A stretch of DNA of 64,000 nt from Candidatus Poribacteria bacterium (GTDB lineage Bacteria > Poribacteria > WGA-4E > GCA-2687025), in contig OY762492.1 of NCBI GenBank assembly GCA_963665845.2, forward strand, positions 1,280,001 through 1,344,000. Reading direction: 5' to 3'. A model generated the notes under the pieces. That model ran no database searches and was not told the origin of the DNA. It saw only the letters and a program-made list of their open reading frames with translations. Position numbers and translations under genes: made by a program. Of this stretch, positions 21,792 to 49,800 are shown in pieces. Within the stretch, counting starts at the first letter, position 1. Each line of letters opens with the position of its first letter.

Positions 21792-21876
21792 CGAACGAGG
21801 CGCCTTCTTTCTTGCGCAGCCTGTCGGGGCGTGTCATGATGCCGGGCATATTATGAGCGCGTCGAGGAGAGAGACC

Positions 21877-22881: not shown

Positions 22882-22990
22882 CGAACAAGACGTATTCTTT
22901 CTTGCGCCCGCTCCGCTGCGTTGACATAATCCGCCTGACGCGTTACCGTAGAATCAACCTTTTTGAAAAATTGAAGCGTGGAGAAAGTCC

Positions 22991-31783: not shown

Positions 31784-32830
31784 ATGACAGCCAAGAAGAT
31801 ACGTTTGACAGAAACGGTCGAGTGCGCGGGTTGAGCGTCTAAGTTGTCTCCGGCGGCGCTGGAGAAGGCGGTCGGTCTTTTGCCGAAAACGGACGATCCG
31901 TCCCTGCTTTGGGGGATGGACACGTCGGACGATGCCGGCGTGTACCAGCTCTCTGACGAGATCGCGGTCGTCAACAGCGTCGACTATTTCACTCCCATTG
32001 TGGACGACCCGCGCATGTTCGGCGAGATCGCCGCGGCGAACGCGTTGAGCGATATTTACGCGATGGGCGCCGTCCCGAAAACGGCTCTCAACATCGTCTA
32101 CTGGGACAAGAACCTGCCGATAGAGATTCTGTCGGAGATTCTTCTCGGCGGATCGCTTCAGCTGGAACGCGCCGGCTGCGCTCTTGTCGGAGGACACTCG
32201 GTCGAAGCGCCGGAGCTGATGTACGGCTTGGCGGTAACGGGCGTCGTTCATCCGAACCGTTTCAAGCGCAACCGCGGCGCGCGGGCGGGCGATCTTCTCG
32301 TTTTGACAAAACCGCTCGGCGTCGGCGTCCTCACTACCGCCGCAAAGTTCAACATGATCAGCGAGGCGGAGCTGCAGCCCGCCATCGATTCGATGCGTCA
32401 GCTGAACGACGCGGCAGGCGTCGTCCTTCAGAAATATGAAGGCAGAGCCGCGACCGACATTACAGGTTACGGTTTGGCGGGGCATGGTTATGAAATGGCG
32501 GCGGCGAGCGGCGTCGCGCTGGAGTTTGACGCCGAACGGCTGCCCGTCTTGCCGTTGGCGCTGGAGCTGATTCGCAAGGGGGTCAAGACGCGCGCGCCGA
32601 AGACGAACGCCGCCTATGTCGGCAAAAACTTGAAAACGGCGCGCGGCGTTTCAAAAGCGGCGCGTCAGCTGTTCTTAGAGGCGGAGACCTCCGGCGGCTT
32701 GCTGATTGCATTTCCGCCGGAGCGGGCGGCGGCGGCGCTGGCGGCGCTGCATGAGCGCGGCTGCGTCCATGCGGCGGAGGTTGGGCGCGTTGTTGAGTCG
32801 CCGGCAGGGGGCGTCTCGCTCCTGTCGTAG
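31784..32830 (+). CDS. selD: Selenide, water dikinase, selenoprotein form (in-frame UGA = Sec17)
   Basis: MTAKKIRLTETVECAG-TGA-ASKLSP; DDAGVY, DYFTPIVDDP, NALSDIYAMG, GGHS, TDITGYGL, ETSGGLL. Confidence 0.93.
31847..31865 (+). promoter_or_regulatory. Putative bacterial SECIS hairpin
   Basis: TCTCCGGC-GGC-GCTGGAGA 8-bp stem with a G-initial loop, 12 nt after the UGA at 31832-31834. Confidence 0.7.
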
Positions 32831-33753: not shown

Positions 33754-33855
33754 CTGACCTCGCCGTCATTCCCGCGTAAGCGGGAATCCAGAGGCGCCGC
33801 AGACGACGTCGGCGCTCGCCATCAGATTTGTCCCTATTAAAGACGTAAAGGTCAG
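33754..33855. repeat. Composite repeat, inverted copy of the 4037-4126 element
   Basis: Bounded by CTGACCT...AGGTCAG. Contains a REP at 33765-33791 and GGCGCCGCAGACGACGTC, the reverse complement of 4081-4098. Confidence 0.7.
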
Positions 33856-33858
33856 CTA

Positions 33859-34899
33859 TCAATTCAACGGGGCTTTTAGTTCGGTCATCAAAACCCAGGG
33901 ATCGTCTGCGGTTCGGCGGTACCGCACCGTTGCGTTCAGCTCGGCGCCTTTCCGGCTTGCGCGGTTGAACGGAACGGCGATGACGCGCGTTTCGCCCGCC
34001 TTTAGCCGTATGTCCTTTGCCGCTGGTTGAACGGGCTTGCCTCCCTCGTCCAGCGGGTGTTGATGCGTCTCCCGCGCGTCATGGAGAACGGCGCCGCCCG
34101 CCGCTGCGATCCGTATGCGCAGCTCAATTTCACGCAGAGGCGCCGCCGGGACGGGATGATCCGCCGTGTTCGTTAAATACAGCTGAACGCCCTCCTCCGT
34201 CGTTTCATAATCCAAAAACAGCGCCGACTGCAGAAACTCTTCGCTGCGCGATCCCAAGAACGCATGCGAAGCGGAGCGCTTGATTTCAGCGCTGTACTGG
34301 CTCGGCTTCCGCTGCGTTTCCGGCATGTGGCACCGCTGGCATGTCTCTCTAGACCCTTCCGCCCGATCCTTCACCTGATTGTGCGCCGCAACCTTCGGCT
34401 GTCCATGACAGCTGCCGCACAACTTGATCTGGCGCGTATAGTAGACGTTGGACGCTTTCGTTTTATGAAACGGGGACGGGTCGTTGTAGGGACCTTTCAT
34501 GGCGCCGTCCGCGTCCAGATGGCATGTGAGGCAGTCGACGCCTGTCTCTTTGCCTTCGGCGCGCAGCAGCGGCATCGGGTACGGGTTCTCCTTCGTCAGC
34601 TTCGCTCCCGCGCCTGTGATGAGTATCGGCTGCGGGGCGTGGCACGGGTCGCATGCTGTCGGCGCATCCTCATACTCGGCGCGCAGCTGTTGATACAGCT
34701 TGCTTTCCCACGCCTGCGCATGCCCCGACGCATCCCACTCCTCCCAGATCTGTTGATGGCAGTCGGCGCATTTTCCCTCCTCCATATGCGCGCGCATCTC
34801 GTTCGCGTCAGGATAGGTCTTCTGCGCATGAAGAACCCATGCGGCGGCAAAGGCGAACAGCGCAGCGAAAACAGCGGCGGCGGCAAGTCGGGGTTTCAT
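33859..34899 (-). CDS. Periplasmic pentaheme cytochrome c (c554/c552-like)
   Basis: Five CxxCH motifs: CADCH, CDPCH, CLTCH, CGSCH, CQRCH. Signal peptide MKPRLAAAAVF. Confidence 0.9.
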   Translation of the reverse strand: MKPRLAAAAVFAALFAFAAAWVLHAQKTYPDANEMRAHMEEGKCADCHQQIWEEWDASGHAQAWESKLYQQLRAEYEDAPTACDPCHAPQPILITGAGAKLTKENPYPMPLLRAEGKETGVDCLTCHLDADGAMKGPYNDPSPFHKTKASNVYYTRQIKLCGSCHGQPKVAAHNQVKDRAEGSRETCQRCHMPETQRKPSQYSAEIKRSASHAFLGSRSEEFLQSALFLDYETTEEGVQLYLTNTADHPVPAAPLREIELRIRIAAAGGAVLHDARETHQHPLDEGGKPVQPAAKDIRLKAGETRVIAVPFNRASRKGAELNATVRYRRTADDPWVLMTELKAPLN

Positions 34900-34944
34900 C
34901 CCAGAAAGTATAATCGACCGCGCCCCTCCTGTCATCCCGCGCCC

Positions 34945-35117
34945 CTGACCTTACGTTTTTAGTTGGAACATGCCGGCGGGCGGATGCGGACGGGTTTTGC
35001 GGAGCTTCAGATTCTCTCCCTGTCCCCATTTTCACGGGGACATGTTCGCAGGGTCATGGCTTGCGCAGGAATGAAAAGACTGGCGGGGGTTTGTCCGCAG
35101 ATAGAAGGCGTCGTCAG
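34945..35117. repeat. Degenerate composite MITE-like repeat
   Basis: CTGACC-N10-AGTTGGAACAT at left; right end reverse-complements to CTGACG-N10-TCTGCGGACAA; decayed REP inside. Confidence 0.5.
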
Positions 35118-35917
35118 CGCCGCCTGCCGTATTTGACATCCAGCTCCCGAAGACGCGCCAAAGCCTTTTCCGTCGGCTCCTTAAATTCGCCCGACTCATA
35201 AAAATCGCGCGTCTTTGCGTTCAGGTTGCCGTAGAAACGGCGCGTGGATTCGTTAGAACTGCCGCGCCAAAGCTCCGCCGGAATGATCGAATCTTCGCTT
35301 AAATACGGGCGGTCGGCGAACCCGTAATAAATCTGCGCCGTTTTGCGTTCGCGCTGCGTGGGGCGGGTCGTCGCCGTGTGGAGCGCGCCGATGTTGAAAA
35401 GGATGCCCGTTCCCGCTTCGCCGTACAGATCGCGCTTTCCGCCGCGCTCCAGCTGCGGATCGTTTTCAAGGATCGGCTCATCGACCGATTCGGGCGAGAT
35501 GGAAAAGCAGTGCGTCGTCTCGTCCACATCCGTAAAATACAGCATCAGCTGCAGAAAACCGACGCGCAGCGGATGCTCCATCCAGTGTCGCGGCCCGTCC
35601 CTGTGCCACGCCTGATGAAACTCGCCCTCGTAAGCCGCCATGTTGCGCAGGCAGATCTCCGAAAAGCATGGGTTTGGACCCATCAGCTGCCACAGCGCCT
35701 CCATCACAACGGGATGCCGCACAATGCGGTCGAACGCCGGCGAGGTGAATAAGGCGTCGCAGTTGACCGTCTGATGATGCCCGATCCGGTACCAGTGTCC
35801 GTTGGCGCGGTCGCGTTCAAACAGCGCCGTGAACTCCTCCACCTCAGCGTCGGTCAAGATTTTTCCCAGCGACGCGTATCCGTTCTGTTTAAAGAAATGC
35901 ATCTGGACGTCGGTCAT
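35114..35917 (-). CDS. PhyH-family Fe(II)/2-oxoglutarate dioxygenase
   Basis: FFKQNGY, WHRD (HxD), GEAGTGILFNIGALH...R. Confidence 0.85.
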   Translation of the reverse strand: MTDVQMHFFKQNGYASLGKILTDAEVEEFTALFERDRANGHWYRIGHHQTVNCDALFTSPAFDRIVRHPVVMEALWQLMGPNPCFSEICLRNMAAYEGEFHQAWHRDGPRHWMEHPLRVGFLQLMLYFTDVDETTHCFSISPESVDEPILENDPQLERGGKRDLYGEAGTGILFNIGALHTATTRPTQRERKTAQIYYGFADRPYLSEDSIIPAELWRGSSNESTRRFYGNLNAKTRDFYESGEFKEPTEKALARLRELDVKYGRRR

Positions 35918-36801
35918 GGGGTCTCCTCTTCGTTTGGGAGAATGCGCTGCCGGAGACGCGCCATCTCCCGTTCCACTTCCATATTTTGGACTCTCTGATC
36001 AAGCCCGCCGTTCAACTCCACGCCTTCGCCAGGGATGAATTGCGCTCTCATCTCAGCGATCGCCGCGTTCACTTCGTTATGGTCGTCCGCGACTTCATGC
36101 TGGATCATTGATGCCGCTTTTTTAAATCCTTCCTGCTGCTTCGCCGCTTTGATTTCCGCAATTTGTATCCGATAATCTTCCGCTTTCATCTCCATTTGGT
36201 TCAGAGCCTCTGAGCAGTCGTTGATGTTTTGGTCAATCAGCGCGCATAATTCTTCGGCGTTGGCTTTTCGGACGAGAAGGCGCCGCGCGTCGTCTTCCAG
36301 ATCGTCCCGCAAAAACTGCATGGCTGCCATTTCGTAATCCACGATGTTTTGCTGATGCTGACCCAATTCATCCCGCATCTCTTTCAATTTGGTTTGAAAT
36401 TGTTCGATCATGTTGACGAGGCGGATGCGAGCTTTGGATAATTGAAGGATCGCCTTATGGTATTTTTTCCTTCTGCTCACCCGCTGATTTTCTCGATGAA
36501 CAGACACGATCCGATAGACCGCCAATATGAAAATGAGAAGAAACAGCGCCGCGGCGGCATACGCTGCAACCTCGGCGAACCATGGGGAAGCAGGATCCGA
36601 CGCGATCGGAATCACGTATCTGAAGACCGTATAGACCTCTATGATGAACGAGAGCGCCGCCGCAAAGATCCACAACTCGAAGCGCGACTTATGGATGAAT
36701 TGCTTGATGCGCCGAAAACTCCTCTGAATTCGATACCGCAGCGAACCAGGCTTATTGGTCCAATCTCTCGGCAGTAAAGGCGGGAAATGCGGCAATTTCA
36801 T
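35914..36801 (-). CDS. Two-TM-anchored PspA/IM30-like coiled-coil protein
   Basis: MKLPHF start, two TM helices, YEMAAMQFLRDDLEDDARRLLVRK (PspA hairpin-like), C-terminal EVEREMARLRQRI. Confidence 0.6.
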   Translation of the reverse strand: MKLPHFPPLLPRDWTNKPGSLRYRIQRSFRRIKQFIHKSRFELWIFAAALSFIIEVYTVFRYVIPIASDPASPWFAEVAAYAAAALFLLIFILAVYRIVSVHRENQRVSRRKKYHKAILQLSKARIRLVNMIEQFQTKLKEMRDELGQHQQNIVDYEMAAMQFLRDDLEDDARRLLVRKANAEELCALIDQNINDCSEALNQMEMKAEDYRIQIAEIKAAKQQEGFKKAASMIQHEVADDHNEVNAAIAEMRAQFIPGEGVELNGGLDQRVQNMEVEREMARLRQRILPNEEETP

Positions 36802-38027
36802 TCGGATAAATCTTTCGCAAGCTCCATGATGTTGCGCATCTGATTGACGAGCGGACCGTAATCCTGCGTAAACTGTTTGGCGATTTGAGAAAGCTGTTCA
36901 TGCAGCTCATTCATCGATCTGGTCAACGCCGCTTCCGTCGCCTTTTCGAGAGAATGCAACGCATCCGCGCGTTCTCTGATCATCGCATCGATCGAATCGC
37001 CCGCCTTAACCGCGCCGGACTGGAGCGCCGCATTCACCTCCTCTTGGCTCTGTAGTATCAACTCGCGCTGATCCTGCATCCCTGTGTTGATCTCATTCGC
37101 CGCTTCTGTAAACGCCTCGATGGCGCTCATCATCAGAGGCGTGGAGGCGTTTAGGTTTTCGGTTCCTTTCTGAATTGCATGCTGCGCAGGTTCAAGCATA
37201 TCGGCGGCTAGATTAGCCGATTCCACAATCTGCGCAGTTCCTCTCTCCATCTGCGTGACGATCGAATCGAGTCCTGTCAGCGCATGCTCTAGCCGCTCTG
37301 CAATCGTTGAAAACCGTTCGCTTCTTTCAACGACGCTTGTCAGCGTCTGTTCGCAAGCGTCAAGCGCCATGACAGCGCGTTCGATCTGCGCAGTTTGCTC
37401 CTGAATCATCTGCTGATGCTGCCGCTGCCACTCCAGCAAATTGTTGGTTGATTCCGCCAATTTGCGAAAACTTTCTCCGCACTGCCTGCTGATTTCGGCG
37501 TTGAATTTATCGATTGTGCCGGCGAGCGCTTTTTCAATCGCTTTGGCGCATTTTTCAGACACCTCCGCTTCAAACGCTTTTATGTCGCTGCGCATCACTT
37601 GGACTTCGGCGGTGAGCGTCGATACGCCCTCTTTCACCGTTGCGACAATCTCGGCCATACCCGCGTTCCCTTCCGCGAGGGATTCGGAGATCGATTTGAT
37701 CATGACGACCGCTTCCGGCGGTTTTTCATAGGCTTTGGCATGGACAATCTTGAGCAAAACCGCCGTACCCATTCCAAACACGGAGGTGATGAAGGCGAAG
37801 CGCAGCCCCGACAGCAGACTTTGGACGCTGCCCACAAGATTCGCGTTCGGCGCGGACGGGCTGATATTTAAGCCGAAGAGACCGACGCAGATGCCGACGA
37901 ACGTTCCAAGCACGCCCAGCATCGTCGCCAGATTCGGGAGCCGCTCCTTCTGCTCCAACCTTCGATTTGCCAATAGGACGATCAGAACGATCCCTGCGCA
38001 CCAGGCGATAGAAAACGTTAGGTTCAT
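36798..38027 (-). CDS. zorA: ZorA-like MotA-type protein (copy 3, 409 aa)
   Basis: LGVLGTFVGI, GLRFAFITSVFG, helical tail, C-terminal FTQDYGPL. Confidence 0.8.
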   Translation of the reverse strand: MNLTFSIAWCAGIVLIVLLANRRLEQKERLPNLATMLGVLGTFVGICVGLFGLNISPSAPNANLVGSVQSLLSGLRFAFITSVFGMGTAVLLKIVHAKAYEKPPEAVVMIKSISESLAEGNAGMAEIVATVKEGVSTLTAEVQVMRSDIKAFEAEVSEKCAKAIEKALAGTIDKFNAEISRQCGESFRKLAESTNNLLEWQRQHQQMIQEQTAQIERAVMALDACEQTLTSVVERSERFSTIAERLEHALTGLDSIVTQMERGTAQIVESANLAADMLEPAQHAIQKGTENLNASTPLMMSAIEAFTEAANEINTGMQDQRELILQSQEEVNAALQSGAVKAGDSIDAMIRERADALHSLEKATEAALTRSMNELHEQLSQIAKQFTQDYGPLVNQMRNIMELAKDLSE

Positions 38028-38061
38028 GTGCGATCCGTTATTGAAGTTGTCAGATTAAATT

Positions 38062-38853
38062 TCATTGACTGCGCCATTTTTCCAGATATTTTTTGATCTT
38101 TTCGACGACGCCCTCAATCTCTTTCAGTTTCTTTTCCGAGTTGATTCGGACGCGAAACTCCACGCGGCGCGATTTAGACGGGTCTTCATGATTGCCGCTC
38201 TGGGCAATCAGTTTTCCGCCGCTGTCCAGAAGCTTGCTGGACGATAAACCGTTGGCGGTCAGTTTGCTCAATATCCATGCTTGATCGTTCTGAACCGCCT
38301 CTTTTTCGAGTCCGATCACATATTCTAGGACGGAGCGGGTTCGATCCTGCGACAGCTCCATGTTGTTGATGTAGGCGATTCTGGACGTCTCGGCGCCTTC
38401 CCACTCGCTGGATGTATGCCCCTCAATTCGAATCTCTTCAATGTGTCCGCGGAATTTTGAATCGGATACAACCGCAATATACCGCGGAAAAAATTCGTCC
38501 ATGATGCGGAGAAATTTCTCTGGCAGTCTGGAGCTTCCCCTTTCAAAAAACTCTTCAGGGTTAAAGCGTATGTACAGCGTTTCTCGGTCAAGGCTGGCGT
38601 TCCATTTTTCCAGGTCCGCCTCAAATTCACTGTTTAGAGCCTTGTATAACTCATCCTGTAAATCGCGGTGAGATTCTGAAATATCCTTAACATCTTCAAC
38701 CAGCCCCTGAGCGTCCTTCGTTTTCTGCACCGCGTCCACCATGAAACTGATGGCGACAAAAAGAAAAATCACCATCAGCCCCGCCATCATGTCCGATATT
38801 GAAATCCATTGACCCTCGCGCTGATTGTCGGAGGCGCCTAAAAAGGTGCGCAT
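38062..38853 (-). CDS. zorB: ZorB-like MotB/OmpA protein (copy 4)
   Basis: WISISDMMAGLMVIFLF, EIRIEGHTSSEW, LSQDRTRSV, ANGLSSS, SRRVEFR. Confidence 0.9.
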   Translation of the reverse strand: MRTFLGASDNQREGQWISISDMMAGLMVIFLFVAISFMVDAVQKTKDAQGLVEDVKDISESHRDLQDELYKALNSEFEADLEKWNASLDRETLYIRFNPEEFFERGSSRLPEKFLRIMDEFFPRYIAVVSDSKFRGHIEEIRIEGHTSSEWEGAETSRIAYINNMELSQDRTRSVLEYVIGLEKEAVQNDQAWILSKLTANGLSSSKLLDSGGKLIAQSGNHEDPSKSRRVEFRVRINSEKKLKEIEGVVEKIKKYLEKWRSQ

Positions 38854-38909
38854 CGTTCAATCCCTAGTTTGCGTTAAAATGCCTGCTTGAAAATGCGTCT
38901 GCGCGTCGG

Positions 38910-39551
38910 TCATACGGCGTCCTCCCCGCTGGGTTGAAGGCGTTCTCGGAGACGCGTCATCTCCTGTTCCACCAGCTCATCCGGTTCGTTCGCCGGCGCC
39001 TTGTTCAGCTCGCGCTCCAGCCCCTTCTTCTCCGCTTTGATGTCCATCTCATGCGCGATGCCGCTGCGCCTGTTCTGCGTCTGCGCCGCCTCATGTTTCA
39101 GTATCCACATCTCATGCTGCCGTTTTAACCGTTCAATTTCAAACATATCTTCGTCGTTGCTCATCTTCATCGCCGCCGTCAACGTTTCAATGGAGCGTAT
39201 GTCGTCTTCGATTCGTTCGCATGCCTCCAGCGCCGTCAGTTTGAGTCGGAGATGTTTCTTCGCGTTCTGCTCTTCGTCTAGCAATAGGGCGTTTTCCGCC
39301 GCTTTTTGCGCCTGTTCCGCCTTCCGTTCGTTTTTTTTCAATTCCTCGCGCCAATGCGCTACCGTCTTGTTCGCCTCGCGGATAAATCTTCTCCGCTCCC
39401 CGATCTTTTTGACGCCGTTGACGATCGCCCCTAAGAATTTCTTGTCTGTTTTGGAGGAACGGCGCGGCGCCTGTTTCGGCCAAGGGGATGTCGCCATCCG
39501 TTTGCGCAAACCGGCAAAGTGTCGGTTTTGTCCAAAATCCGGCAGCTTCAT
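38910..39551 (-). CDS. PspA/IM30-like coiled-coil protein with ZorE-like N-terminus
   Basis: MKLPDFGQNRHFAGLRKRM start, KAAENALLLDEEQNAKKHLRLK, C-terminal VEQEMTRLRERL. Confidence 0.6.
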   Translation of the reverse strand: MKLPDFGQNRHFAGLRKRMATSPWPKQAPRRSSKTDKKFLGAIVNGVKKIGERRRFIREANKTVAHWREELKKNERKAEQAQKAAENALLLDEEQNAKKHLRLKLTALEACERIEDDIRSIETLTAAMKMSNDEDMFEIERLKRQHEMWILKHEAAQTQNRRSGIAHEMDIKAEKKGLERELNKAPANEPDELVEQEMTRLRERLQPSGEDAV

Positions 39552-41053
39552 TCTAAATCCTTCGCCATCTGAACCACCTCGCGCAGCCTTTCGGTCAGCG
39601 GTCCGTAATCGTCCACAAACTTTTCCGACAGCTCCGCCAACTGACGACCCAGCGTGATCAGCGACTGCTTCAGCGCCGCCTCAAGACTTTTCTCCAGATT
39701 GTTCAACGCCCGCGCCCGCTCCATGAACAGCCGATCCACGCTCTCGCCGATCTTTTCAGCCGCCGCGGCGACCGCTTTATTCATGCCGGCGATGTTTTCA
39801 TCCACCTTCGGCAGCTCGCGGTTCGCCGAGGAGGCGGCGTCCGCAAACGCTTTCCATTCGTCCGTCAAACGGGAGGCGCCGTCGGTCAACGCTTTCAGCG
39901 CCGGCGCTAGTTCCCGCGCCGGCTCCTCCACCGCCGCCAGCGTTTCCTGCCGCGCGGACATATGCTGAATAACCGCCTCTAGACGCTCCGCGGTCTCGAC
40001 AAACAGACCGCTTTGCGCGACCAGTTTGCCCATCGCCCCTTGAATCTCCGAAAGCGCCTGCGAACCCGCCTCCAGCGCCTCTTGCGAGCGGCGGCTCCGT
40101 TCGTCTAGGTTTTTGCTGATTTCGTCCGCCGCCGTTTGAAACGCGCCTGACGCCTGCTTTAAACCGCTCTCTAGCTGTGGAATCGTTTGACCGGCTGTTT
40201 TGGCTGAATCGGCGACGGACCGAAACTCGCCGCCCAGATTGCCCGCCCCTTCCCGCAGCGCTTCCAGCGCCGACGCCAGCTGCGCCGCCGGCTCAACGAG
40301 GCGCGCGATGCGCTCCTCCCGCGTCTCCAGCTCCTCCAATGCGCCGTCCAGACGATCCGCGATGGACGCGAACGCGCCGCTGCGCTCCACAAACGCGCTC
40401 ATCGCCTCCTCCGACGCCTTCAGCGCCGCGATGGAGGCGTCCAGCTGCTTCGACTGCTCCTCCACCTGTTTTGCATGCGCCGTCTGCCATAGATGAAGAC
40501 GGCCGGCAGTGTCGTTCAGCTGACGAAAACTCTCGGCGCATTGGGCGTTGATCTCGGCGTTGAAACCCTCGACAAGGCTCTCCATCGCGGCGGTCAGCGC
40601 CGCCGCCGATTTATCGGCAACCTCCGCCTCAAAGGTTTTGAAATCGCCGCGCAGCTTCTCCGACTGGTCAATGAGGCGCGCGTTGCCGTCGTTGAGCGCC
40701 TGAACAAGCGCGTCCAGCCGCTCCGTCAACGGCTCCAGCGGATCGGACGCATCCTCGTCCGTTTGCTTCATTTTAAGAAAGACGGCGGTACCCATGCCGA
40801 ATACAGAGGTGATGAAGGCGAAGCGGAGACCGTTTAAAAGGCTGCTGGCGCCTTTCTCCAGCTGGGCGATGCCGCCCGTTTCGGACAGCTGAATCCCAAG
40901 CAGGCTCCAACAGACGCCGACGAAGGTGCCGAGAACGCCCAGCATCGTCGCCAGATGCGGCAGCCGCTCTTTTTCCACATTCGGTTTGCGGCTTAGCCAA
41001 AAGACCGCCGCGACGATGCCGACGCACCAGAGAGCGGGAAAAAGATAGTTCAT
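39548..41053 (-). CDS. zorA: ZorA-like MotA-type protein (copy 2, 501 aa)
   Basis: LGVLGTFVGV, GLRFAFITSVFG, helical tail, LGRQLAELSEKFVDDYGPLT. Confidence 0.8.
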   Translation of the reverse strand: MNYLFPALWCVGIVAAVFWLSRKPNVEKERLPHLATMLGVLGTFVGVCWSLLGIQLSETGGIAQLEKGASSLLNGLRFAFITSVFGMGTAVFLKMKQTDEDASDPLEPLTERLDALVQALNDGNARLIDQSEKLRGDFKTFEAEVADKSAAALTAAMESLVEGFNAEINAQCAESFRQLNDTAGRLHLWQTAHAKQVEEQSKQLDASIAALKASEEAMSAFVERSGAFASIADRLDGALEELETREERIARLVEPAAQLASALEALREGAGNLGGEFRSVADSAKTAGQTIPQLESGLKQASGAFQTAADEISKNLDERSRRSQEALEAGSQALSEIQGAMGKLVAQSGLFVETAERLEAVIQHMSARQETLAAVEEPARELAPALKALTDGASRLTDEWKAFADAASSANRELPKVDENIAGMNKAVAAAAEKIGESVDRLFMERARALNNLEKSLEAALKQSLITLGRQLAELSEKFVDDYGPLTERLREVVQMAKDLE

Positions 41054-41062
41054 TCGCGCGTC

Positions 41063-41890
41063 TCAATCGGCGTCAAAGTTTCCCTGCGCCTCCTTGAATT
41101 CGTCATACAGCTCTTCGATCATCTCGATGCGTTTTTCGGCGCTGATGCGGACGCGGAACTCAACGCGCCGCGACCGCCGCTTGTCTTCGCCCTTGCCGCT
41201 TATTTTAATCAGATTTCCGTTCCTGTCCAACCGCTTGCTGAACGACAAGCCGTTCGCGGTCATGCGGTCTTGGATCCATTCCAGGTTGTCTCTCACGACG
41301 CGCTTTGGAATCTGCAGAACATATTGGAGCGTTGAACGGGTGCGGTCTTGGGACAGCTGCATGTTGAAAAAATACGCCTCATCGGGCGAGGCGCTTTCGT
41401 TCCATTCGCTGGAGGTATGCCCCTCAATGCGTATCTCTTCGATGTCGCCCCGATACTTCTCCTGGGCGAGAATATGCACATAGCGCGGGAAAAAGTCGTC
41501 CAGTATCGCGCGAAAACCAGCCGGCAGACGCGAGCTGCCCTGCCGAAAAAGCATGCCGGGGTCCTGAAACCGAATCGAAAGCGTGTCGGGATCGATCTCG
41601 GCGTTCCACTTTTGGAGATCGTTTGTCCGCTCAAATTCTTGGCGCAGGTCTTGCAGCAGCTCCTTCTGAAGATTGCGGTAGGTTTCCGCCGCCTCCTGGA
41701 CGCTGTCGCGCTGGCGTTCGGCTGTTTTCCGCTGCCTGTCCGCCTCCGCTTTTTTCTGCGCCGCGTCGATCATAAAACTGATTGCAATGAACAGAAAAAC
41801 CGCCATCAGCACGGTCATCATATCGGAGATGGAGAGCCACTGTCCCTCGTTTTGATCGGGGTTTCGGCGGAAGAGATTGCGCATCGTCAA
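41063..41890 (-). CDS. zorB: ZorB-like MotB/OmpA protein (copy 3)
   Basis: WLSISDMMTVLMAVFLF, EGHTSSEW, LSQDRTRS, SRRVEFR. Confidence 0.9.
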   Translation of the reverse strand: MTMRNLFRRNPDQNEGQWLSISDMMTVLMAVFLFIAISFMIDAAQKKAEADRQRKTAERQRDSVQEAAETYRNLQKELLQDLRQEFERTNDLQKWNAEIDPDTLSIRFQDPGMLFRQGSSRLPAGFRAILDDFFPRYVHILAQEKYRGDIEEIRIEGHTSSEWNESASPDEAYFFNMQLSQDRTRSTLQYVLQIPKRVVRDNLEWIQDRMTANGLSFSKRLDRNGNLIKISGKGEDKRRSRRVEFRVRISAEKRIEMIEELYDEFKEAQGNFDAD

Positions 41891-41899
41891 GACATCCCC

Positions 41900-42718
41900 C
41901 TAGCGTCCGGCGGATACTGGATTCCTCGCCATGTGACCATGTCCAGGCTGCTTTCGGTGGCACCAATGGCACAAAGCCTTCAGGTTGGTGCGGTCGTTGT
42001 TCGCCTTATTTCCGTCGATGTGGTGAACATGCAGACGTTGTCTCTGTACTCGGAAATTAATTAGGCATTGTTCACATACCCACCCGACAGACTCCCGGTA
42101 TTGGAGCGATATTTCATGCCAATCTTCTGGATATACGTTGGCAGGGGCTGTTTCGTTATTGTGCAGCGGGAGCCATGTGGTCGGCGTTTCCCGATACATC
42201 TCAAAAAACTCATCCAGCCTGAAATTACGATAGATTTCGTCCCAATCCCGTCCGTATTGGCGATAGCCTTTATACCGCAGCTTAGCGAGGCAGTTTTTAC
42301 AGACATTCAAGCGGACATGTTCGGTTTGGACGCCGGCGTACCCGTTGTTAACATTGATCTGGAAGATGCCGTCTGTCCGATTTGAGACGACATATCGATG
42401 CCCTCTACCGCCCTTGATCATGCCACTGAGCGTTCCGCAGTGCGCGATGTGAAATTTCGGTCTTGATCCTAAGGAGCTGACATCGCGGATATAGATCAGC
42501 ACCCTCTCTCCATTGATCGCGAGAGTGCCGTCAGATCCTATGACGAGATCATCGGGGTTCACCTCCAGGCCTTCGCGAGACGCGAGCGTTTTACGAAGCT
42601 CGTTCGGGTCCAGGGATTTCCATCCGGCCCCGCCTCGTTCCTGCTCCACATATTCGGCGCCCATCGCGCGGCGCAGGAGATTCAGACGCGCATGTTCACG
42701 GAAATTGGGCAGCTTCAT
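41900..42718 (-). CDS. zorE: ZorE-like HNH endonuclease
   Basis: KFHIAHCGTL, VCKNCL, C-terminal CEQC...LHVHHIDGNKANNDRTNLKALCHWCH. Lies downstream of zorAB. Confidence 0.85.
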   Translation of the reverse strand: MKLPNFREHARLNLLRRAMGAEYVEQERGGAGWKSLDPNELRKTLASREGLEVNPDDLVIGSDGTLAINGERVLIYIRDVSSLGSRPKFHIAHCGTLSGMIKGGRGHRYVVSNRTDGIFQINVNNGYAGVQTEHVRLNVCKNCLAKLRYKGYRQYGRDWDEIYRNFRLDEFFEMYRETPTTWLPLHNNETAPANVYPEDWHEISLQYRESVGWVCEQCLINFRVQRQRLHVHHIDGNKANNDRTNLKALCHWCHRKQPGHGHMARNPVSAGR

Positions 42719-43425
42719 TATGCAATTCCTCCCTCTTCGACAATGCGGGTGATGCGCTTCTCGGCGTTGATGGCGATTCGGAATTCAAGGCGGCGCGACC
42801 GCATTTTGTCCTCGTTTCCGTTTTTCAGCAAGCGCGGTTTGCTTGATGAAAGCCCGTTGGCGGTCAGTCGGCTTAGCATCCACTGCCGCTCTCTGGGTAT
42901 CGGCGTACGCGAGATGCCCAGGACAAATTCCAACGCGGCGCGGGCGCGGTTTTGGGTCAGCTCCATGTTGCGGATATACGCCTCTTCAGAGGTTGCAGTT
43001 TTGCTCCAGTCGCTGGATGTGTGCGCTTCAATGCGTATTTCTTTGATGGCGTCCCGATACTTTTCGCGGGCGAGTATCCGTATGTAACGCGGGAAGAAAT
43101 CGTCCAGGATCGCGCGCAGCGGCGTTTGAAGCTTTGAGGCTTCTGCTTGAAAGAGCATGTCGGGCGTTTGAAAACGCACCGAAAGGGCGACGGCGTCCAG
43201 CTCGGCTTGCCACTCGTCCAGATCGTTTCTGAATTCATCGTAGAGATCTTTGTACAGACCTGCCTGAAGACGTTGATGGCCAACGGCAATCGCCTTGAGT
43301 CCATCTCGAACGCTCTCCGCTCTCTTTCTTTGGGTACGCTCACGGATCAGCGAGCCGATGAGGACGATAAGGATTGCGACAGCAAAAACCCCCATGCTTT
43401 CAACCGGCATATTCTCAAAAGGCAT
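42718..43425 (-). CDS. zorB: ZorB-like protein (copy 2) with atypical TM helix
   Basis: OmpA-like domain closely similar to copy 1 (EAHTSS, LTQNRARA, SRRLEFR), but no WISISD TM motif. Confidence 0.8.
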   Translation of the reverse strand: MPFENMPVESMGVFAVAILIVLIGSLIRERTQRKRAESVRDGLKAIAVGHQRLQAGLYKDLYDEFRNDLDEWQAELDAVALSVRFQTPDMLFQAEASKLQTPLRAILDDFFPRYIRILAREKYRDAIKEIRIEAHTSSDWSKTATSEEAYIRNMELTQNRARAALEFVLGISRTPIPRERQWMLSRLTANGLSSSKPRLLKNGNEDKMRSRRLEFRIAINAEKRITRIVEEGGIA

Positions 43426-43500
43426 ACGGCGCCTTTCTACGAGTTTCGGATGCCGGCAAGGAGCCGACTCCTGTAAAAGCGCGAGCCAGGTTTGAGCGCG

Positions 43501-44253
43501 TCATTCAACGATTCCTCCCTCTTGGATAATGCGGACGATCTGTTCCTCGGCGTTCGTACGGACGCGAAACTCAACGCGCCGAGACTGTATTTTATCTTCT
43601 TCGTCGCCATTTTTGAAGCGGAGCTTGCTGGACGAAAGCCCGTTGGCGGTCAAATGCTTCTTGACCCAATCCCGCTCTTTCGGCATCGGAGATTTCTGGA
43701 TATTTAAGACGTGCTTTAACACGGCGCGCGTCCGATCCTGGGACAGTTTCATGTTTAGAATATATGCCTTATCCTGCGAAACGGACACATTCCACTCGCT
43801 GGACGTATGCCCTTCAATGCGTATCTCTTCGATGTCGTCCCGATATTTTTCCTGATCGTCCAGGGCGAGAATTCGAATATAGCGCGGGAAGAAATCGTCC
43901 AGGATGCCTTCAAACCGCTCCTGAAGATCTGCTTTTCCTATCTCAAAAAGAACGTCCGGCGCACGAAAACGCACCGAGAGCGTCGGCTTGTCGATGGTGG
44001 CGTCCCACTCGTCTAGATTGTCTTTGAACTCATCAAGCAGATCGTTGTACAGATCGTTCTGAAGACGCTGGTAGGTGACGGCGATCTCTTTGATGCTGTC
44101 TCTTTCCACCTCGATTTTGTTCTTTTTCTCCTGCGCGTCCAGCATGAAACTGAGCGCGACAAACAGGAAAATCACCATGAGACCGGCCATCATGTCGGAG
44201 ATGGAGATCCATTGTCCCTCGTCCTGCTGTTCGGGAAGCTGCTGGTCATTCAT
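43501..44253 (-). CDS. zorB: ZorB (copy 1)
   Basis: WISISDMMAGLMVIFLF, EGHTSSEW, LSQDRTRAV, SRRVEFR. Confidence 0.9.
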   Translation of the reverse strand: MNDQQLPEQQDEGQWISISDMMAGLMVIFLFVALSFMLDAQEKKNKIEVERDSIKEIAVTYQRLQNDLYNDLLDEFKDNLDEWDATIDKPTLSVRFRAPDVLFEIGKADLQERFEGILDDFFPRYIRILALDDQEKYRDDIEEIRIEGHTSSEWNVSVSQDKAYILNMKLSQDRTRAVLKHVLNIQKSPMPKERDWVKKHLTANGLSSSKLRFKNGDEEDKIQSRRVEFRVRTNAEEQIVRIIQEGGIVE

Positions 44254-44287
44254 CGTTCAAACCTTCCATTTTCATCGCTTGAGCGGT

Positions 44288-46741
44288 TCAAGATCGGCTC
44301 CGAGAAGTCGCCGACGATCTTGGCGGGGAGGGGTCCTCTAAACCTTCCGCTATCCGCACAACTCTGCGCAGTTGCTCCGTAAGCGGCGTGTAATCTTGAA
44401 CAAACCTTGTCGAAAGCGACACCAGCTGACTCGCAAGTGAATTGAGCGCTTTGGTAAGCTCTTCGCCGAGCGCATTGTCCAGCTCCTCCGTCTGCTTCGC
44501 CATGTTTTCGCCTGCCGTTCTGACGAATTCCGCTATATGGTTGCTCATCTGCGTTGCGGATTCTGTGACGCGCCGGTTCATGGCATTGTGAGCTTGCTCA
44601 ATCCGTTGGCTTGTGTTGTTGACGCTGAGCAGAGCTTCGGCGGCGGCGCTTGAGATGGATCCGCTAGCGTTCTGGACGCTTTCGCTCATCTCGGCTTGAA
44701 CTCTCTGAAATTCCGTTATCAGCTCCATCTGGCTTTTCATGTTTTCAAGCGCATCCGCGGCGGCGCTGACAAATCCATTGACAGCGGCTTTGATCTGTTC
44801 ATTGACAGTCTCTTGGGTTTGCGCGATTTGATACCGCTGGTTCGCCATACTTGCGAACGCGCTGTCCGCGGCGTTTTTGAATCCGTCCGCGGTCGCTTCG
44901 ATTTGTGCGTTCACGTTCGTTTGCGTCTGTTCGATCTGCGTTCGCTGGTTTTCCATGCTCGTCAGCGCCGTTTGAGTCGATTTCTCAAATCCAGCCGCTG
45001 TTTGCTCAATGCGGCTTTGCTGCGTTTTCAGACCCTCAACCGACGCTTCAGCGGCGTCCTTGAATCCATCCGCCGCTTCTTGTATCTGCGCATTCACACC
45101 CTGCTGAAACGACTGCATCTGATTTCTCTGCTGACTCATGCTGTCAAGCGACGCCGCAACCGATTGTTGAAAATCTGCCGCCGTTTGCTTTACTCCTGCA
45201 TTGACGGCATCTTGATTTTCTTTAATTCGTTCGCGCTGCTTGTCCATACTCTCAACCGACGCATCAACCGATTTTTTGAATTCGTCTGCGGCATTCGTCA
45301 CCCCCGAGTTGACGATCTCTTGATTCTTTTCAATCAGTTCGCGCTGACCATCCATGCTCGCCAATGACGCATCAACCGAATTCTTGAAGCCAGCCGCTGT
45401 CTCCTGTATCTGCGCGCCAACCTGCTTCTGGTTTTCCGCCATCAACGTCTGCTGTTCCTCCAGGCTCGTTTTCAGTTGGGCGTTCACCTGTTCCTGATTC
45501 TTTTCCAGCTGACCAGCTTGATTCTTGATACTTTCCAACGCGGCGCCGGCGGATTCCGTAAACCCGTTCGCCGTTTCCTGTATCTGCGCGCCGACCTGCT
45601 TCTGGTTTTCAGCCATCAATGTCTGCTGTTCCTCCAGGCTGGTTTTCAGTTGGGCGTTCACCTGCGCCTGATTCTTTTCCAGCTGGTCAGCTTGATTCTC
45701 GATACTTTTCATTGCGGCGCCGGCGGATTCCGTAAATCCATTCGCCGTTGTCGTCAGCCCGCTTGTGATCTGCTCAATGTTCTGCTGTATCGATGGGAAG
45801 GCGCTTTCCGCCCGTTCGCCGAGATTCGCCAGCGCCGCAAGATGCGCGTTCATCGCCTCGTTGCGCGCGCTTAGATCGCCCAGCGCCTCGTCTAGCCGGT
45901 CGGCGACGCCCGCAAACGTCTCGCTCCGCTCAACGACGACTCCCATCGACTCCTTACAGCTCTCCAGCGCCTCCATCGACTGCCGCAGCTGCCCGACCAT
46001 CGCCTCCACCTGCTCCTTGTAGTTTTCCTGCCAAGTGAGCAGCTGCCCGACCGCTTCATTGAGCTGCTTGAAGTTGTCGCCGAACTGCTCATTGATTTTG
46101 GCGTTGAAATCGCGCATCACCTCCTCCAGCGCCTCAATGAGCGCCTTGGAGTTGTTCTCCGCCATCGATTCGGCAAACTCCCGAAATTCCTTGATGAGAT
46201 CGTCCTGCTTGTCGGAAAAGGTTGTGCGCATCTTCTGCATCTGCGTCAACAGGGTTGTGTCGCCTTCACCGGTCAGGGCGCGCTCCACCGCCCCGATCTT
46301 GTTTAAAAGCGTCGACTCGCCCTCTCCCGTGACCGCATTCGCGACCGCCGCCGTGTTTTCGTTGATTTCCTGAAAGCCGTTCTTCAGTAGATCGGCAAGC
46401 GTGTCAAGCGTGGCGCCTTCCGTCGCCTGTCCCTCTGTCTTGCCCCGCCCCGAGATCTTGCCCAGAAAGAATCCTCTCAGTACGACTGCAGTAAGAATTC
46501 CAGCTACGGAGGTGATGAACGCAGTACTGAGACCCTCCAGCAGACCAGGTATGCTGCCGTTGATGTCCGCTACGTCGAATCCCCGTAGCCCGTACAGGAT
46601 TCCTCCGAAGGTTCCGAGAATGCCTAAGACCGTCGCAAAGTTGGGAATGGACGCTCTGTGAGGATTCCCCCGCAGCCGAATCGCAAGGATGATTGAAACA
46701 ACGATGATGAACGCGCTATACGCCAGCGCTAAGTTCAGCAT
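44288..46741 (-). CDS. zorA: ZorA (copy 1, 817 aa) with repeat-expanded tail
   Basis: LGILGTFGGI, GLSTAFITSVAG, FNAKINEQFGDNFKQLNEAV..L..WQENYK, C-terminal FVQDYTPLT. Confidence 0.9.
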   Translation of the reverse strand: MLNLALAYSAFIIVVSIILAIRLRGNPHRASIPNFATVLGILGTFGGILYGLRGFDVADINGSIPGLLEGLSTAFITSVAGILTAVVLRGFFLGKISGRGKTEGQATEGATLDTLADLLKNGFQEINENTAAVANAVTGEGESTLLNKIGAVERALTGEGDTTLLTQMQKMRTTFSDKQDDLIKEFREFAESMAENNSKALIEALEEVMRDFNAKINEQFGDNFKQLNEAVGQLLTWQENYKEQVEAMVGQLRQSMEALESCKESMGVVVERSETFAGVADRLDEALGDLSARNEAMNAHLAALANLGERAESAFPSIQQNIEQITSGLTTTANGFTESAGAAMKSIENQADQLEKNQAQVNAQLKTSLEEQQTLMAENQKQVGAQIQETANGFTESAGAALESIKNQAGQLEKNQEQVNAQLKTSLEEQQTLMAENQKQVGAQIQETAAGFKNSVDASLASMDGQRELIEKNQEIVNSGVTNAADEFKKSVDASVESMDKQRERIKENQDAVNAGVKQTAADFQQSVAASLDSMSQQRNQMQSFQQGVNAQIQEAADGFKDAAEASVEGLKTQQSRIEQTAAGFEKSTQTALTSMENQRTQIEQTQTNVNAQIEATADGFKNAADSAFASMANQRYQIAQTQETVNEQIKAAVNGFVSAAADALENMKSQMELITEFQRVQAEMSESVQNASGSISSAAAEALLSVNNTSQRIEQAHNAMNRRVTESATQMSNHIAEFVRTAGENMAKQTEELDNALGEELTKALNSLASQLVSLSTRFVQDYTPLTEQLRRVVRIAEGLEDPSPPRSSATSRSRS
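45402..45749. repeat. 174-bp tandem duplication inside zorA1, adjacent to degenerate 108-bp units
   Basis: TCCTGTATCTGCGCGCC... starts at 45402 and 45576; the 58-aa unit occurs twice. Confidence 0.9.
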
Positions 46742-46774
46742 TGAAATCTTCTCCGAATGTAAGGTTAAGTTTAA

Positions 46775-46803
46775 AGTTTAGCGTTAAACGCTGTCGGCGT
46801 CAA
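46775..46803 (-). promoter_or_regulatory. Putative sigma70 promoter of the Zorya-like operon
   Basis: TTGACG-N17-TAAACT on the minus strand, with GGAG RBS before zorA1. Confidence 0.65.
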
Positions 46804-46857
46804 GGGTAACGGGCTGATGTTGACGCAATGCGAACGCGGACGGTTTCCGCGCAGGAA

Positions 46858-49800
46858 TTACGAGGCGGGGGAGCGCGGCGCCTTCAAAACGACCCCCCAT
46901 TCGCCCAAAGCCCAGACCGCCGCGCCGTCTTCCGACACGGCTAAAAAGCGCAGGGCGTATTGGACAGGGGAGCGCAGTTTCTGCCATGTCTCTCCGCCGT
47001 CCGTTGTATGGAGAATGACGCCGTCGTTTCCGACCGCATACGCCTCCTTCTCCGACAGCGCCTCAACCCAGTTCAAGTCGCTTGAGAGACCGCTCTTCTG
47101 CTTTGTCCATGCGGCGCCGATGTCTTCCGTCCGCAGAATGATTCCGTATTGCCCGACCGCCCATCCGACGCGGGGCGACGCGGCGCAAACGCTGTTCAAG
47201 GAGTATGCCGTGCCGCTCTCCTGGTCTCGCCAGCGCGTTCCGCCGGAGGAGCTGTGCAGCATGATGCCGCGCGAACCCGCGATCCATCCGTAGCCGAACC
47301 GGTCGAGGTGAACGGAGCGCAGGTCGTATCCTTCGCCTTTCATCTGCCGTTCCCATTCGGGTCCGCCGTCTGGGTTATGGACGATGACGCCGCCCTGTCC
47401 GACCGCCCAGGTTTCGCCGAAGCCGGACATGAACCCGCCGTTGAGTCGGACGCGCCCCTGCAGCGGCTCCGATTCCAGCGGCGTCCATCCGAAGCCGTCT
47501 TCGGTGAAGAGATGCGACCCGGCGGCGTCCAACGCCCATCCGAAACCGCGCCCTTTGCTTGCCCAGTGCATGGCGATGATGCTGGGTCCGCCGCTTTTCT
47601 GCTCTGTCCATGTTTGTCCGCCGTCTGCCGTGTGGATAATCAGCCCGTCTTCGCCTGCCGCCCATCCTTCGTCTGTCGACAGAAACCGACCCGCGCCGAG
47701 AGCCTGCGGCGAGCTTTCAACGAGCGTATCCCATGACGCGCCGCCGTCCGTCGTTTTATAGAGCCGCCCGCCTTCTGCCGCCCAGCCTTGCGAGGGCGAC
47801 AGAAAATAGGTCGACGCAAAACGCTCCGTCCCGGCGGGCGACCAGCTCTGCCCTCCGTTCAGCGTGAAATAGGCGCGCCCCTGACGCTGCGCCGCCCATG
47901 CGGTCTGTTCATCCAAGACGCGCGCCTTCTGCATGCCGAGCAGGCGGCGCCTTCCTCCCGACTCCCAGGTCTCTCCGTCCCTTGTGATGAGCGTCTCTCC
48001 GCTGGATGAGATCGTCATTCCGTTCGTTGGGGTAAAGAAGAGTATTGCCGCCGGCGTCTGCGCAGGTTTTGCCTGTATCGCCCAGGTTTCGCCGCCGTCG
48101 CGCGTGTGGAGAATGAAGCCGCCTTCGCCTCTCTGCGGGGCGACCGCCCATCCATGCGTCGGCGAGACGAAAAAGAGCGTTCGGACCGCCGCGTTCGTCG
48201 CCGCGGTGTCCTTATGGAGCCATGTTTGTCCGCCGTCGTTGGTGCGCAGGATCGTCCCATGCCCTGCGCTGATCCAGGCATGCCGCGCGTCTAAAACGAA
48301 CAGGTCGGTGAAACGCTGGCGCGCCGAGGAGTTTTGATATTCCCATGTTTCGCCGCCGTCTTTGGTGGCGAGTATCGTTCCTTCGCCGCCGATCGCCCAG
48401 CCATGCATATCGTCCGCGAAGGCGACGCGGGTCAAGCGGTTCTGGACGCCCGATTCGCGCGGCTCCCAGGTCTTTCCGCCGTCGTTCGTCAAGGCGATCA
48501 TGCCGTTCAAGCCGACGGCGGCGCCGCGCGTCTCGTTGGCAAAGGCGACGTCCAGAAACTGGGTCGGCCATGCGCTGACGCGGACAACCTCCCAGCCCGC
48601 CTCCAGTTCGGGTACGCGCGGCGGCTCTTCGACGGTTGGGCGCGTCTGCGCGATCACATCGTCCAGCGTCCCCTGGTCAGGTTTGATGTCGGGCGTGTAG
48701 CGGATGACGATTCCGCCCTGTCCGACCGCGACGACGCCTTGGGAGGAGACGGCAAAATCGAGCAGATCGTTCTCGGAGCCGCTTTCGTTTTGAATCCATA
48801 TTTCGCCGCCGTTGACGGTGGTCAGAAGCATGCCGTCGTCCCCGATCGCCATCCCCCAATACTCGTTCAGGAAGAAGACGCGGTTTAGGTTCGTGAGCGT
48901 TCCGCTGGCTTGAAACGCCCATGTGTCGCCGCCGTCTTTAGTGTGCAGTATTTCGCCTTCCTGCCCGACGATCCATCCGACATTTTGGTTCACAAAATGC
49001 AAGCCGTAGAGTTCGTTGAAGGTGCCGCTGTCCTGCCGTTCCCAGGTCAGCCCGCCGTCCTGTGTGCGGTAGACGATGCCCGGCCATCCGACGATCCAGC
49101 CATGGTTTTGGTCAAGAAAGAAAACAGCGGTGAGCGTTTGAAACTCGAACGGCTTCTGGTTCGCCCAGTTGCGCCCGCCGTCCTTGGTGTAGATGATGGT
49201 GCCGAGATCGCCGACCGCCCAGCCGCGGTTCGCGTCTAAAAAGAAAACGCCGTTCAGTTGGAACCCCATGCCGCCTGTTTGGTAACGCCATGTTTTTCCG
49301 CCGTCTACGGTGTTCATGACGATGCCGCGTTCGCCGACCGCCCAGCCGCGCAGTTCGTCGATGAAGGCGACGCTTTTGAGCGTGTCGACCTGCCCCGTTT
49401 TCTGTTCCACCCATGTTTTTCCGCCGTCTTCGGAAGTGAGCAGCGTCCCGCCCGTTCCGACGGCGATGGCGCGTTCGTCCGACACAAATTCAACCGATTC
49501 AAGATGGTGCGCCATGACGGCTCCGCTGACCGTGTTCCAGGTTTTCCCGCCGTCTTCAGAGTGGAGAATGACGCCGTACCATCCGCATGCCCATGCTTCG
49601 TTTTTGGAGACGAATTGAATGTCGGTCAGGTTTGTTTGATAGCCGCTGTTGCGGAGCGTCCATGTGTCGCCGCCGTCGTCGGTTTGGGAGATATGTCCGC
49701 CGTTTGCGACGGCGGCGCCGTTTCGGTCGTCCCAGAAGTCGATGCCGTTGACCGAGAAGCGCACATGGTCGGTGAACGGGATTCGGCTGTCTTGGCGTTC

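Follow-up and report, generated by a model that had tools for sequence, protein, structure and literature searches.

A Zorya type II operon of a Candidatus Poribacteria bacterium with additional zorB–zorA units ending in PspA-related proteins

The described Zorya systems are built around ZorAB, a 5:2 ion motor that needs an aspartate of ZorB, peptidoglycan binding and the ZorA tail (PMC11890865). ZorE reaches the membrane only upon infection and only with ZorAB (PMC11890865), and in Zorya type I the tip of the ZorA tail is required for the co-localisation of the effector (PMC11946911). In Zorya type III, ZorAB is flanked by ZorF (DUF3348) and ZorG (DUF2894) (PMC8565338). Here, we analysed a 64-kb stretch of DNA from a Candidatus Poribacteria bacterium (contig OY762492.1, positions 1,280,001 to 1,344,000; hereafter, the window). 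It carries a Zorya II operon in which a normal zorA–zorB–zorE set is followed by two further motor units, each ending in the gene of a PspA-related protein, X1 or X2. This variant of Zorya II, with partners derived from the PspA/ESCRT-III proteins and with a helix of ZorE common to X1, is real, intact and under selection, and as far as the literature searched goes it is previously undescribed.

The genome of the window (G000; 3.98 Mb, 90% complete) was compared with a second genome of the same genus of Candidatus Poribacteria (G001) and with assemblies of the public sequencing runs X1, X4, X5 and X6, which should not be confused with the proteins X1 and X2.

The Zorya motor genes and ZorE

The operon consists of unit 1 (zorA1–zorB1–zorB2–zorE), unit 2 (zorB3–zorA2–X1) and unit 3 (zorB4–zorA3–X2), all encoded on the minus strand. 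The original prediction had read these ten open reading frames (ORFs) in the same order, with short gaps and overlaps, and all of its coordinates were recovered; the ORF positions also confirmed the reversed order of units 2 and 3, with B before A and X last. From zorA1 to X2, the intergenic gaps are 34, 75, −1, 9, 9, −4, 56, 34 and −4 nt. The largest is thus 75 nt, three stop/start pairs overlap, and the start of both X genes overlaps the zorA stop by 4 nt. The gene run had been thought to end at X2, which was incorrect: the gene of a phyH-family dioxygenase (35114..35917, minus strand; over the Pfam PhyH cut-off) follows with a 4-nt overlap with the X2 stop and is translationally coupled to the last X gene. 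The single promoter that had been proposed is at present a candidate. One possible sigma-70-type promoter was found at 46775..46803 on the minus strand (9/12 consensus matches, 17-nt spacer; weak on its own), and the similarity to G001 ends at 46804, right at its −35 box; the promoter scan gave 10 sites vs 5.0 ± 2.4 in shuffles.

The locus is no assembly artefact. Positions 33781-48000 are covered by one 16,890-nt contig of run X1 with 0 differences and by abutting pieces of run X4, again with 0 differences; the two runs belong to one study, and the source sample is possibly among them. A tblastn search across G000 gave no ZorA, ZorB or ZorE matches outside the operon.

The best PADLOC matches were three ZorA2, four ZorB2 and one ZorE2 models, all of Zorya type II, and an NCBIfam scan agreed with this assignment, so the Zorya II-like nature of the operon was upheld. 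The ZorA proteins gave E 3e-102 for zorA1 (44288..46741; 817 aa), 3e-58 for zorA2 (39548..41053; 501 aa) and 9e-46 for zorA3 (36798..38027; 409 aa), whose best PDB match was the Zorya II structure 8VVI (E 2e-17); all three stay below the NCBIfam cut-off of 700 bits for E. coli equivalogs. The ZorB proteins gave E 1e-92 for zorB1 (43501..44253), 4e-65 for zorB2 (42718..43425), 2e-84 for zorB3 (41063..41890) and 2e-83 for zorB4 (38062..38853). As had been expected, these proteins group with ZorAB and not with the flagellar MotAB or ExbBD: the B proteins scored 180-242 bits with the ZorB2 models and only 18-31 bits with the MotB models, the protein ZorB2 matched 8VVI at E 3e-34, and the ZorA tails are about 300-720 residues long. 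The zorE gene (41900..42718; PADLOC ZorE2 E 4e-80) encodes an HNH nuclease over the Pfam HNH cut-off; all four of its motifs (CxxC-type or HNH) are intact, and it starts with the conserved helix.

In the alignment, ZorB1, ZorB3 and ZorB4 keep the transmembrane Asp together with the H-T-S and Arg motifs of the peptidoglycan-binding domain. A long-tailed ZorA and a canonical ZorB are thus present, with ZorE after zorB in unit 1 only. Unit 1 is a normal ZorA–ZorB–ZorE set and a member of Zorya II, whereas the operon as a whole is not a single A–B–E unit with the nuclease as the sole partner, units 2 and 3 being B–A–X. These two units encode intact ZorA and ZorB proteins of a separate clade. In a tree of 29 ZorB proteins, ZorB3 and ZorB4 were sisters (99/96), as were ZorB1 and ZorB2 (92/88), with ZorB2 on a long branch. 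In the ZorA tree, ZorA2 and ZorA3 formed a clade (98/97) with two ZorA proteins from a 424,732-nt ENA contig; this tree covers 26 ZorA, as 7 of 33 rows without a membrane core were dropped. ZorA2 and ZorA3 share 39% identity, and both are intact. Gene order and the matching clades suggest that each ZorB pairs with the ZorA of its own unit.

ZorB2 is a duplicate of ZorB1 with a rewritten N-terminus. It has Glu in the register of the ion-binding Asp, as seen in the alignment, and retains the periplasmic His, Ser and Arg. Its gene is missing from G001 and is nearly unchanged in the relative P0018 from a second strain. The Glu and the rewritten membrane segment could alter ion use or allow mixed ZorB dimers.

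The tails of ZorA1, ZorA2 and ZorA3 measure ~720, 400 and 310 residues, and the alignment showed the tip motif F-x-x-D-Y-x-P-L conserved at the ends of all three. The tail of zorA1 (44288-45800) has grown by tandem repeats, namely a 174-nt pair and spaced units of 75-216 nt, and its length varies among strains. The G001 assembly has its zorA1 split over two frames; at this site (L007:15156-15206) one extra base is found in runs X4 and X5 but not in X6, which may be a strain lesion or an assembly error.

Ancestry of X1 and X2 and the ZorE-type helix

X1 (38910..39551, minus strand) is a soluble protein of 213 aa and X2 (35914..36801, minus strand) a protein of 295 aa, with two transmembrane helices (41-59 and 78-96) predicted from hydropathy before the hairpin. 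They share 28% identity over 155 aa (E 2e-6), and X2 matches a PspA gene elsewhere in the genome at E 1e-5. When both were tested directly against the Pfam PspA family (PF04012, cut-off 33.9 bits), neither matched; the best result of the direct Pfam, NCBIfam and PADLOC scans was X2 against PspA models at E 0.04-0.05, and the X relatives P0005, P0007 and P0019 reached 14-16 bits with PF04012. The proposed resemblance to PspA was borne out by the more sensitive comparisons that follow.

A profile built from X proteins only was run on 1.84 billion protein representatives and gave 11 matches: four members of the X family, six PF04012 members over the cut-off and one 827-aa protein. The top PF04012 match was the third of the three ordinary PspA genes carried by the genome itself (C1:2641838-2642503). 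Against the PDB, the first 10 of 21 entries were Vipp1 or PspA (best E 1.3e-6, four entries with E < 0.001), the alignment being colinear with Vipp1 23-219, and Snf7 appeared at E 0.12. HHalign of X against ten PspA proteins gave 98.9% (E 2.6e-17) compared with 27.7% and 2.1% for control coiled coils of ZorA; the X profile had itself picked out six of these ten PspA proteins, so the test and the profile search are not independent. The Atlas score of X1 was 0.92, and that of X2 was lower at 0.82.

AlphaFold2, used with X-only alignments, predicted X1 helices at residues 10-20, 34-90, 94-163, 171-183 and 190-205 (pLDDT, the predicted local distance difference test score, 78.6), which is the pattern described for Vipp1 (PMC8281802). 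Among the entries listed by Foldseek, the first 20 for X1 and the first 19 for X2 were all Vipp1, PspA or ESCRT-III proteins (best E 2e-3). The predicted X fold superposed on PspA 4WHE with a root-mean-square deviation (rmsd) of 1.3 Å over 109 columns. Taken together, these comparisons support well the view that X1 and X2 are divergent relatives of PspA and share its ancestry. They keep the hairpin and helix 5, the regions used for polymer contacts in this family. The PspA-type helix 0 is not present, its place being taken by a ZorE-type helix in X1 and by a transmembrane hairpin in X2.

In the PspA tree, X was placed weakly (85/80, on long branches) with a PspA paralogue encoded next to a DUF151 gene, which makes this paralogue only a likely donor. 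This divergent pspA, the third PspA gene mentioned above, is the closest ordinary relative of X. The gene before it is presumably DUF151-like, judging from its sequence. The pair (G000:C1:2641386-2642503, L006) is conserved in four genomes of the class, the other loci being L047, L050 and L066.

For the analysis of the N-termini, a profile was made from 14 ZorE N-termini of other genera and run on the 33,233 ATG starts of the genome. The two top-ranking starts were those of the ZorE of the window (E 9e-8) and X1 (E 7.5e-6). Three X1 orthologues came next, and the first unrelated match was an ABC ATPase at E 0.002. The helix motif was also found in the ZorE of Psychrobacter and Burkholderia. 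Residues 1-21 are the best-conserved part of X1, with 86% identity to G001 vs 66% for the whole protein, and the ratio of nonsynonymous to synonymous substitution rates (dN/dS) of these 21 codons is 0.10 vs 0.36 overall. Meanwhile, the two hydrophobic helices of X2 are bordered by basic stretches, from which we infer that its PspA core is cytoplasmic. The original prediction had noted neither the ZorE-type start of X1 nor the membrane helices of X2, nor the altered ZorB2. A likely history, read from the sequences, is that a PspA paralogue acquired both the start of ZorE and a hairpin in the membrane, after which X1 kept the helix and X2 kept the anchor.

Conservation of the units and variation among strains

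G001 carries the order zorA–zorB–zorE–zorB–zorA–X1–phyH, i.e., two units and no zorB2. The dN/dS between G000 and G001 was 0.15 for zorB3, 0.28 for zorA2 and 0.36 for X1, compared with 0.24 for zorB1, 0.43 for zorE, 0.42 for the N-terminal part of zorA1 and 0.10 for phyH; these values come from one genome pair and, of the two extra units, cover unit 2. The zorB–zorA–X genes of unit 2 are under purifying selection. Neither relaxed selection on unit 2 (0.15-0.36) nor a loss of the triplet in relatives, which together would have spoken against the original prediction, was found.

The X genes were present in two of the 176 genomes of the phylum, G000 and G001, which is one genus of the 31 searched, while a ZorB2 match with E < 1e-60 was found in 56 of the 176. 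At 28 of the 30 best ZorE loci of the phylum there is no ZorA or ZorB within 1.5 kb downstream; only G000 and G001 continue with B–A. The X-profile matches in 18 other genomes of the phylum and a second match in G001 were rejected, as no Zorya gene lies within 1.5 kb of them and those translated were ordinary PspA-like proteins.

Further relatives were seen on ENA contigs, where co-location was judged from proteins on contigs of the same size and not from gene order. Six of the eight members of the cluster of G001-type X1 co-occur with relatives of ZorA2 and ZorB3, and all three members of a second X1 cluster with relatives of ZorA2. An 88,715-nt contig combines X1-, X2-, ZorA2-, ZorA3- and ZorB3-type proteins, and the 424,732-nt contig combines P0022, an X relative bearing transmembrane helices, with the two ZorA of the ZorA2/ZorA3 clade. 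Metagenome relatives carry two or three units, and counterparts in other records have about 20-40% identity. Single-sequence searches returned close relatives only (three proteins for X2, four for X1). The scan of JGI metagenomes found no X among 599 candidates, and a single 1,830-nt contig carried a distant ZorA; a scan of GTDB genomes with ZorA2 gave the G001 contig and three weak coiled-coil matches, and the plasmid search gave no X2 match.

Many Poribacteria carry a second kind of Zorya (L026, L028-L037, L039, L041 and L043), in which ZorB has a different start motif and is followed by a gene of 460-490 aa that is not zorE, with a further 1,073-aa gene in L043; it is probably type I-like. 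At L044 (G005:C9:55000-71000), an array of flagellin-like genes encloses a Zorya II unit whose ZorE is divergent and 394 aa long.

Unit 3 is variable among strains. Run X5 contains a joint from 35948 to 39072 that skips this unit, as does run X4 at low depth, and the relatives P0003 and P0005 have swapped tails. The 3' end of X1 with an 18-codon phyH-like stub (38857..38972, minus strand) repeats the X2/phyH junction (35895-35976) as an 82-nt imperfect direct repeat (D13; 77%), and this repeat is likely the crossover point for the gain and loss of unit 3. A 7,323-nt contig of run X6 has the order zorA1–zorB1–zorB2–gap–zorB3–zorA2–X1–phyH. Its zorE slot of ~490 nt matches neither ZorE at 80% and, compared with ZorE proteins of 263-272 aa, is too short for the full nuclease. 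The phyH gene has 92% identity and the same position after the last X gene in G001, while the flanks of the G001 locus map elsewhere in G000; phyH travels with the cassette, and the operon ends in it.

Around the operon, a short dispersed repeat (33756-33825) has ~940 blastn matches in the genome; copies resembling it are present on either side of the operon and at the synteny breaks with G001. Repeated pairs of a TPR gene with an HTH-like tail and a gene for a 163-aa PIN-like protein, recognised by eye, lie at 21853-23503 and 27651-30761 and resemble toxin–antitoxin modules fused to TPR arrays. SelB-like and SelD-like genes, also recognised by eye, lie at 9176-11092 and 31844-32830; the SelD-like ORF has a TTG start and may extend upstream via a selenocysteine codon. 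No Rfam family or tRNA was found within the 64-kb window.

Possible roles of the X units and comparison with known systems

The reading that we favour, at evenly balanced confidence, is that a Zorya II operon has been extended by one or two zorB–zorA–X units, in which X would be a repurposed PspA/ESCRT-III protein that remodels the membrane on behalf of its own ZorAB motor upon a breach of the envelope by a phage. This supports the original prediction, which had proposed extra ZorAB sensors coupled to effectors of membrane remodelling or repair instead of a nuclease. Units 2 and 3 are read as extra sensors with a membrane-remodelling partner because of the published recruitment of ZorE by ZorAB and because the critical residues of ZorB1, ZorB3 and ZorB4 and the tail tips are kept. 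Following the published Zorya work, each ZorA5B2 motor would anchor to peptidoglycan upon envelope damage, and its ZorA tail would recruit a partner. X1 would be recruited like ZorE, with the common helix as a docking or membrane-targeting tag, and X2 would be pre-anchored in the inner membrane. Concentrated at the entry site, X1 and X2 would form polymers, by which the membrane would be sealed, stiffened or constricted; sealing or stiffening seems the most likely action, with unit 1 meanwhile cutting DNA.

A more specific version, which we regard as possible and put forward tentatively, is that this is a new Zorya subtype: its ion motors, anchored to peptidoglycan, would nucleate polymers of the ESCRT-III kind where the phage enters, so that a PspA-derived protein would be the effector dedicated to an immune sensor, and the 20-residue ZorE helix would serve as a portable docking tag that gave rise to this effector when it was transferred to a PspA paralogue of the host. 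The published work describes recruitment without a binding site, and how ZorAB picks its partner is the question on which X1 bears: as a natural chimaera, an otherwise unrelated protein that shares just its first 20 residues with ZorE, it points to a candidate docking tag that is directly testable. Should X be an output, the sensing of the envelope by Zorya would lead to the remodelling of membranes in addition to the cutting of DNA, and bacterial immunity would have a dedicated component from the ESCRT-III family. ESCRT-III repairs membranes in eukaryotes, and the Poribacteria operon would echo this. The breadth of the phenomenon is so far one genus of Poribacteria and a few metagenome records.

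Several observations weigh against this reading. The ZorE proteins of E. coli, Vibrio and P. putida gave no score with the motif profile, X2 has lost all of the motif beyond its sixth residue (E 31), and of the distant relatives bearing transmembrane helices P0019 is borderline (E 0.02) and P0022 gives no score (E 61), though it is similar by eye. The helix of X1 is basic and amphipathic, so it could merely stand in for helix 0. A docking role for it, or for the same helix in ZorE, is our suggestion, and the portions of the Zorya papers used do not name the part of ZorE that binds ZorAB; a predicted complex of X1 with four ZorA2 tail tips (residues 425-501) scored 0.00, which speaks neither for nor against, the native tail being a pentamer and the model taking four copies at most. 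Helix 4 of X1 is shortened, and polymerisation may therefore be altered. As for the fold, all Foldseek E-values exceed 0.001, and VIA-align against 4WHE (Z 12.5, rmsd 2.4 Å over 122) placed PspA level with unrelated coiled coils in a wide search made with X2 only. The dN/dS evidence comes from one genome pair and, of the two extra units, covers unit 2. Finally, the operon lies among housekeeping genes and not in a defence island, it ends in phyH, and X1, ZorA2 and ZorB3 are more uniform among strains than ZorE, which fits a housekeeping stress role equally.

The last of these points lead to the alternative that survives best, namely that the Zorya motors of the extra units have been domesticated to watch over the envelope in general. 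They would respond to damage of the wall or the membrane, whatever its source (host attack, osmotic or chemical stress), by PspA-like repair and would have no special link to phages. PspA supports the maintenance of the inner membrane under many stresses (PMC7619361), the proteins of unit 2 fall into 8-9-member clusters at 90% identity while both ZorE are singletons, and the contig of run X6 keeps zorB3–zorA2–X1–phyH next to the short zorE slot. We nevertheless consider this role unlikely, as the units lie behind zorE in a Zorya II operon in every ordered locus (G000, G001 and the X6 contig), the genome already has its three ordinary PspA genes, and unit 3 comes and goes among strains, as accessory defence genes do.

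The helix common to X1 and ZorE would also suit regulators: X1 could compete with ZorE for the ZorA tails or sequester it, and the extra motors would then tune or damp the nuclease. The same tip motif on all three ZorA tails makes cross-recruitment possible, ZorE nicks host DNA (PMC11890865), which would make a brake useful, and PspA keeps the cyclase of a CBASS (an antiphage signalling system based on cyclic oligonucleotides) inactive in Bacillus (PMC11153139). A brake is not generally needed, though, given that such genes are absent from the 1.5 kb behind zorE at 28 of the 30 ZorE loci examined in the phylum; each X has a dedicated motor, and the X unit is still there in a strain that seems to have lost its full-length zorE, which leaves this explanation somewhat less probable again.

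If X1 and X2 were killing effectors, their polymerisation, triggered by the motor, would deform or sever the inner membrane and abort the infected cell. ESCRT-III-type polymers do curve and cut membranes (PMC8281802), and the two membrane helices of X2 recall those of many abortive effectors. We rate this as improbable, a little below the regulatory role, since no depolarisation of cells was seen with the described Zorya systems (PMC11890865), Zorya type I acts without killing (PMC11946911), and the PspA family is protective. That units 2 and 3 are decaying duplicates and X1 and X2 chance chimaeras, with the ZorE-like start left over as a translation start, would agree with the narrow distribution (2/176 genomes), with the recombination marked by the junction repeat and the phyH stub and with the split zorA1 of G001, but is very improbable in view of dN/dS values well below 1 and lowest in the motif, of ZorA2/ZorA3 and X1/X2 pairs that are intact at 39% and 28% identity, and of the counterparts at about 20-40% identity in other records.

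The reading of X as the membrane-remodelling output of its own motor can be set against the known systems. The original prediction knew of no Zorya type with this layout, and none was found in the open-access literature on Zorya, on PspA/Vipp1/ESCRT-III and phage defence, and on Poribacteria, a search that did not extend to subscription papers and supplements. The main text, as far as used, of the survey of phage shock protein (PSP) neighbourhoods (PMC11237479) has no mention of Zorya; its Table S3 and web data, outside the search, could bear on novelty.

With Zorya II (PMC11890865, PDB 8VVI), the locus shares the order of unit 1, the three families and motor proteins that all seven match type II models best. 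It differs in that a single operon holds three zorA and four zorB genes, that two of its units have the order B–A and end in a non-nuclease, that one ZorB is a duplicate with Glu for Asp, and that a phyH gene is coupled to it. Like Zorya type III, it combines the motor with partners other than the nucleases of types I and II; unlike type III, its motors are type II-like, the type III ZorA3 and ZorB3 models scoring far lower, and the ZorF and ZorG models match neither X1, X2 nor the flanking genes at E 0.1.

X1 and X2 resemble PspA/Vipp1/IM30 (PF04012, ESCRT-III superfamily; PMC8281802) in the hairpin of helices 1-3 followed by helices 4 and 5. They differ in staying below the Pfam cut-off, in the replaced helix 0, in the shortened helix 4 of X1 and in being encoded with an ion motor instead of Psp partners. 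The described PspA/Snf7 homologues with a transmembrane segment in operons with an OmpA-domain protein are accompanied by AAA+ ATPases and ABC transporters (PMC11237479). As in the CBASS type II–PspA conjugation of Bacillus (PMC11153139), a PspA protein is tied to phage defence at the membrane; there, an ordinary host PspA is the conjugation target that holds the cyclase off, whereas here the defence operon itself encodes dedicated derivatives of PspA that have been remodelled.

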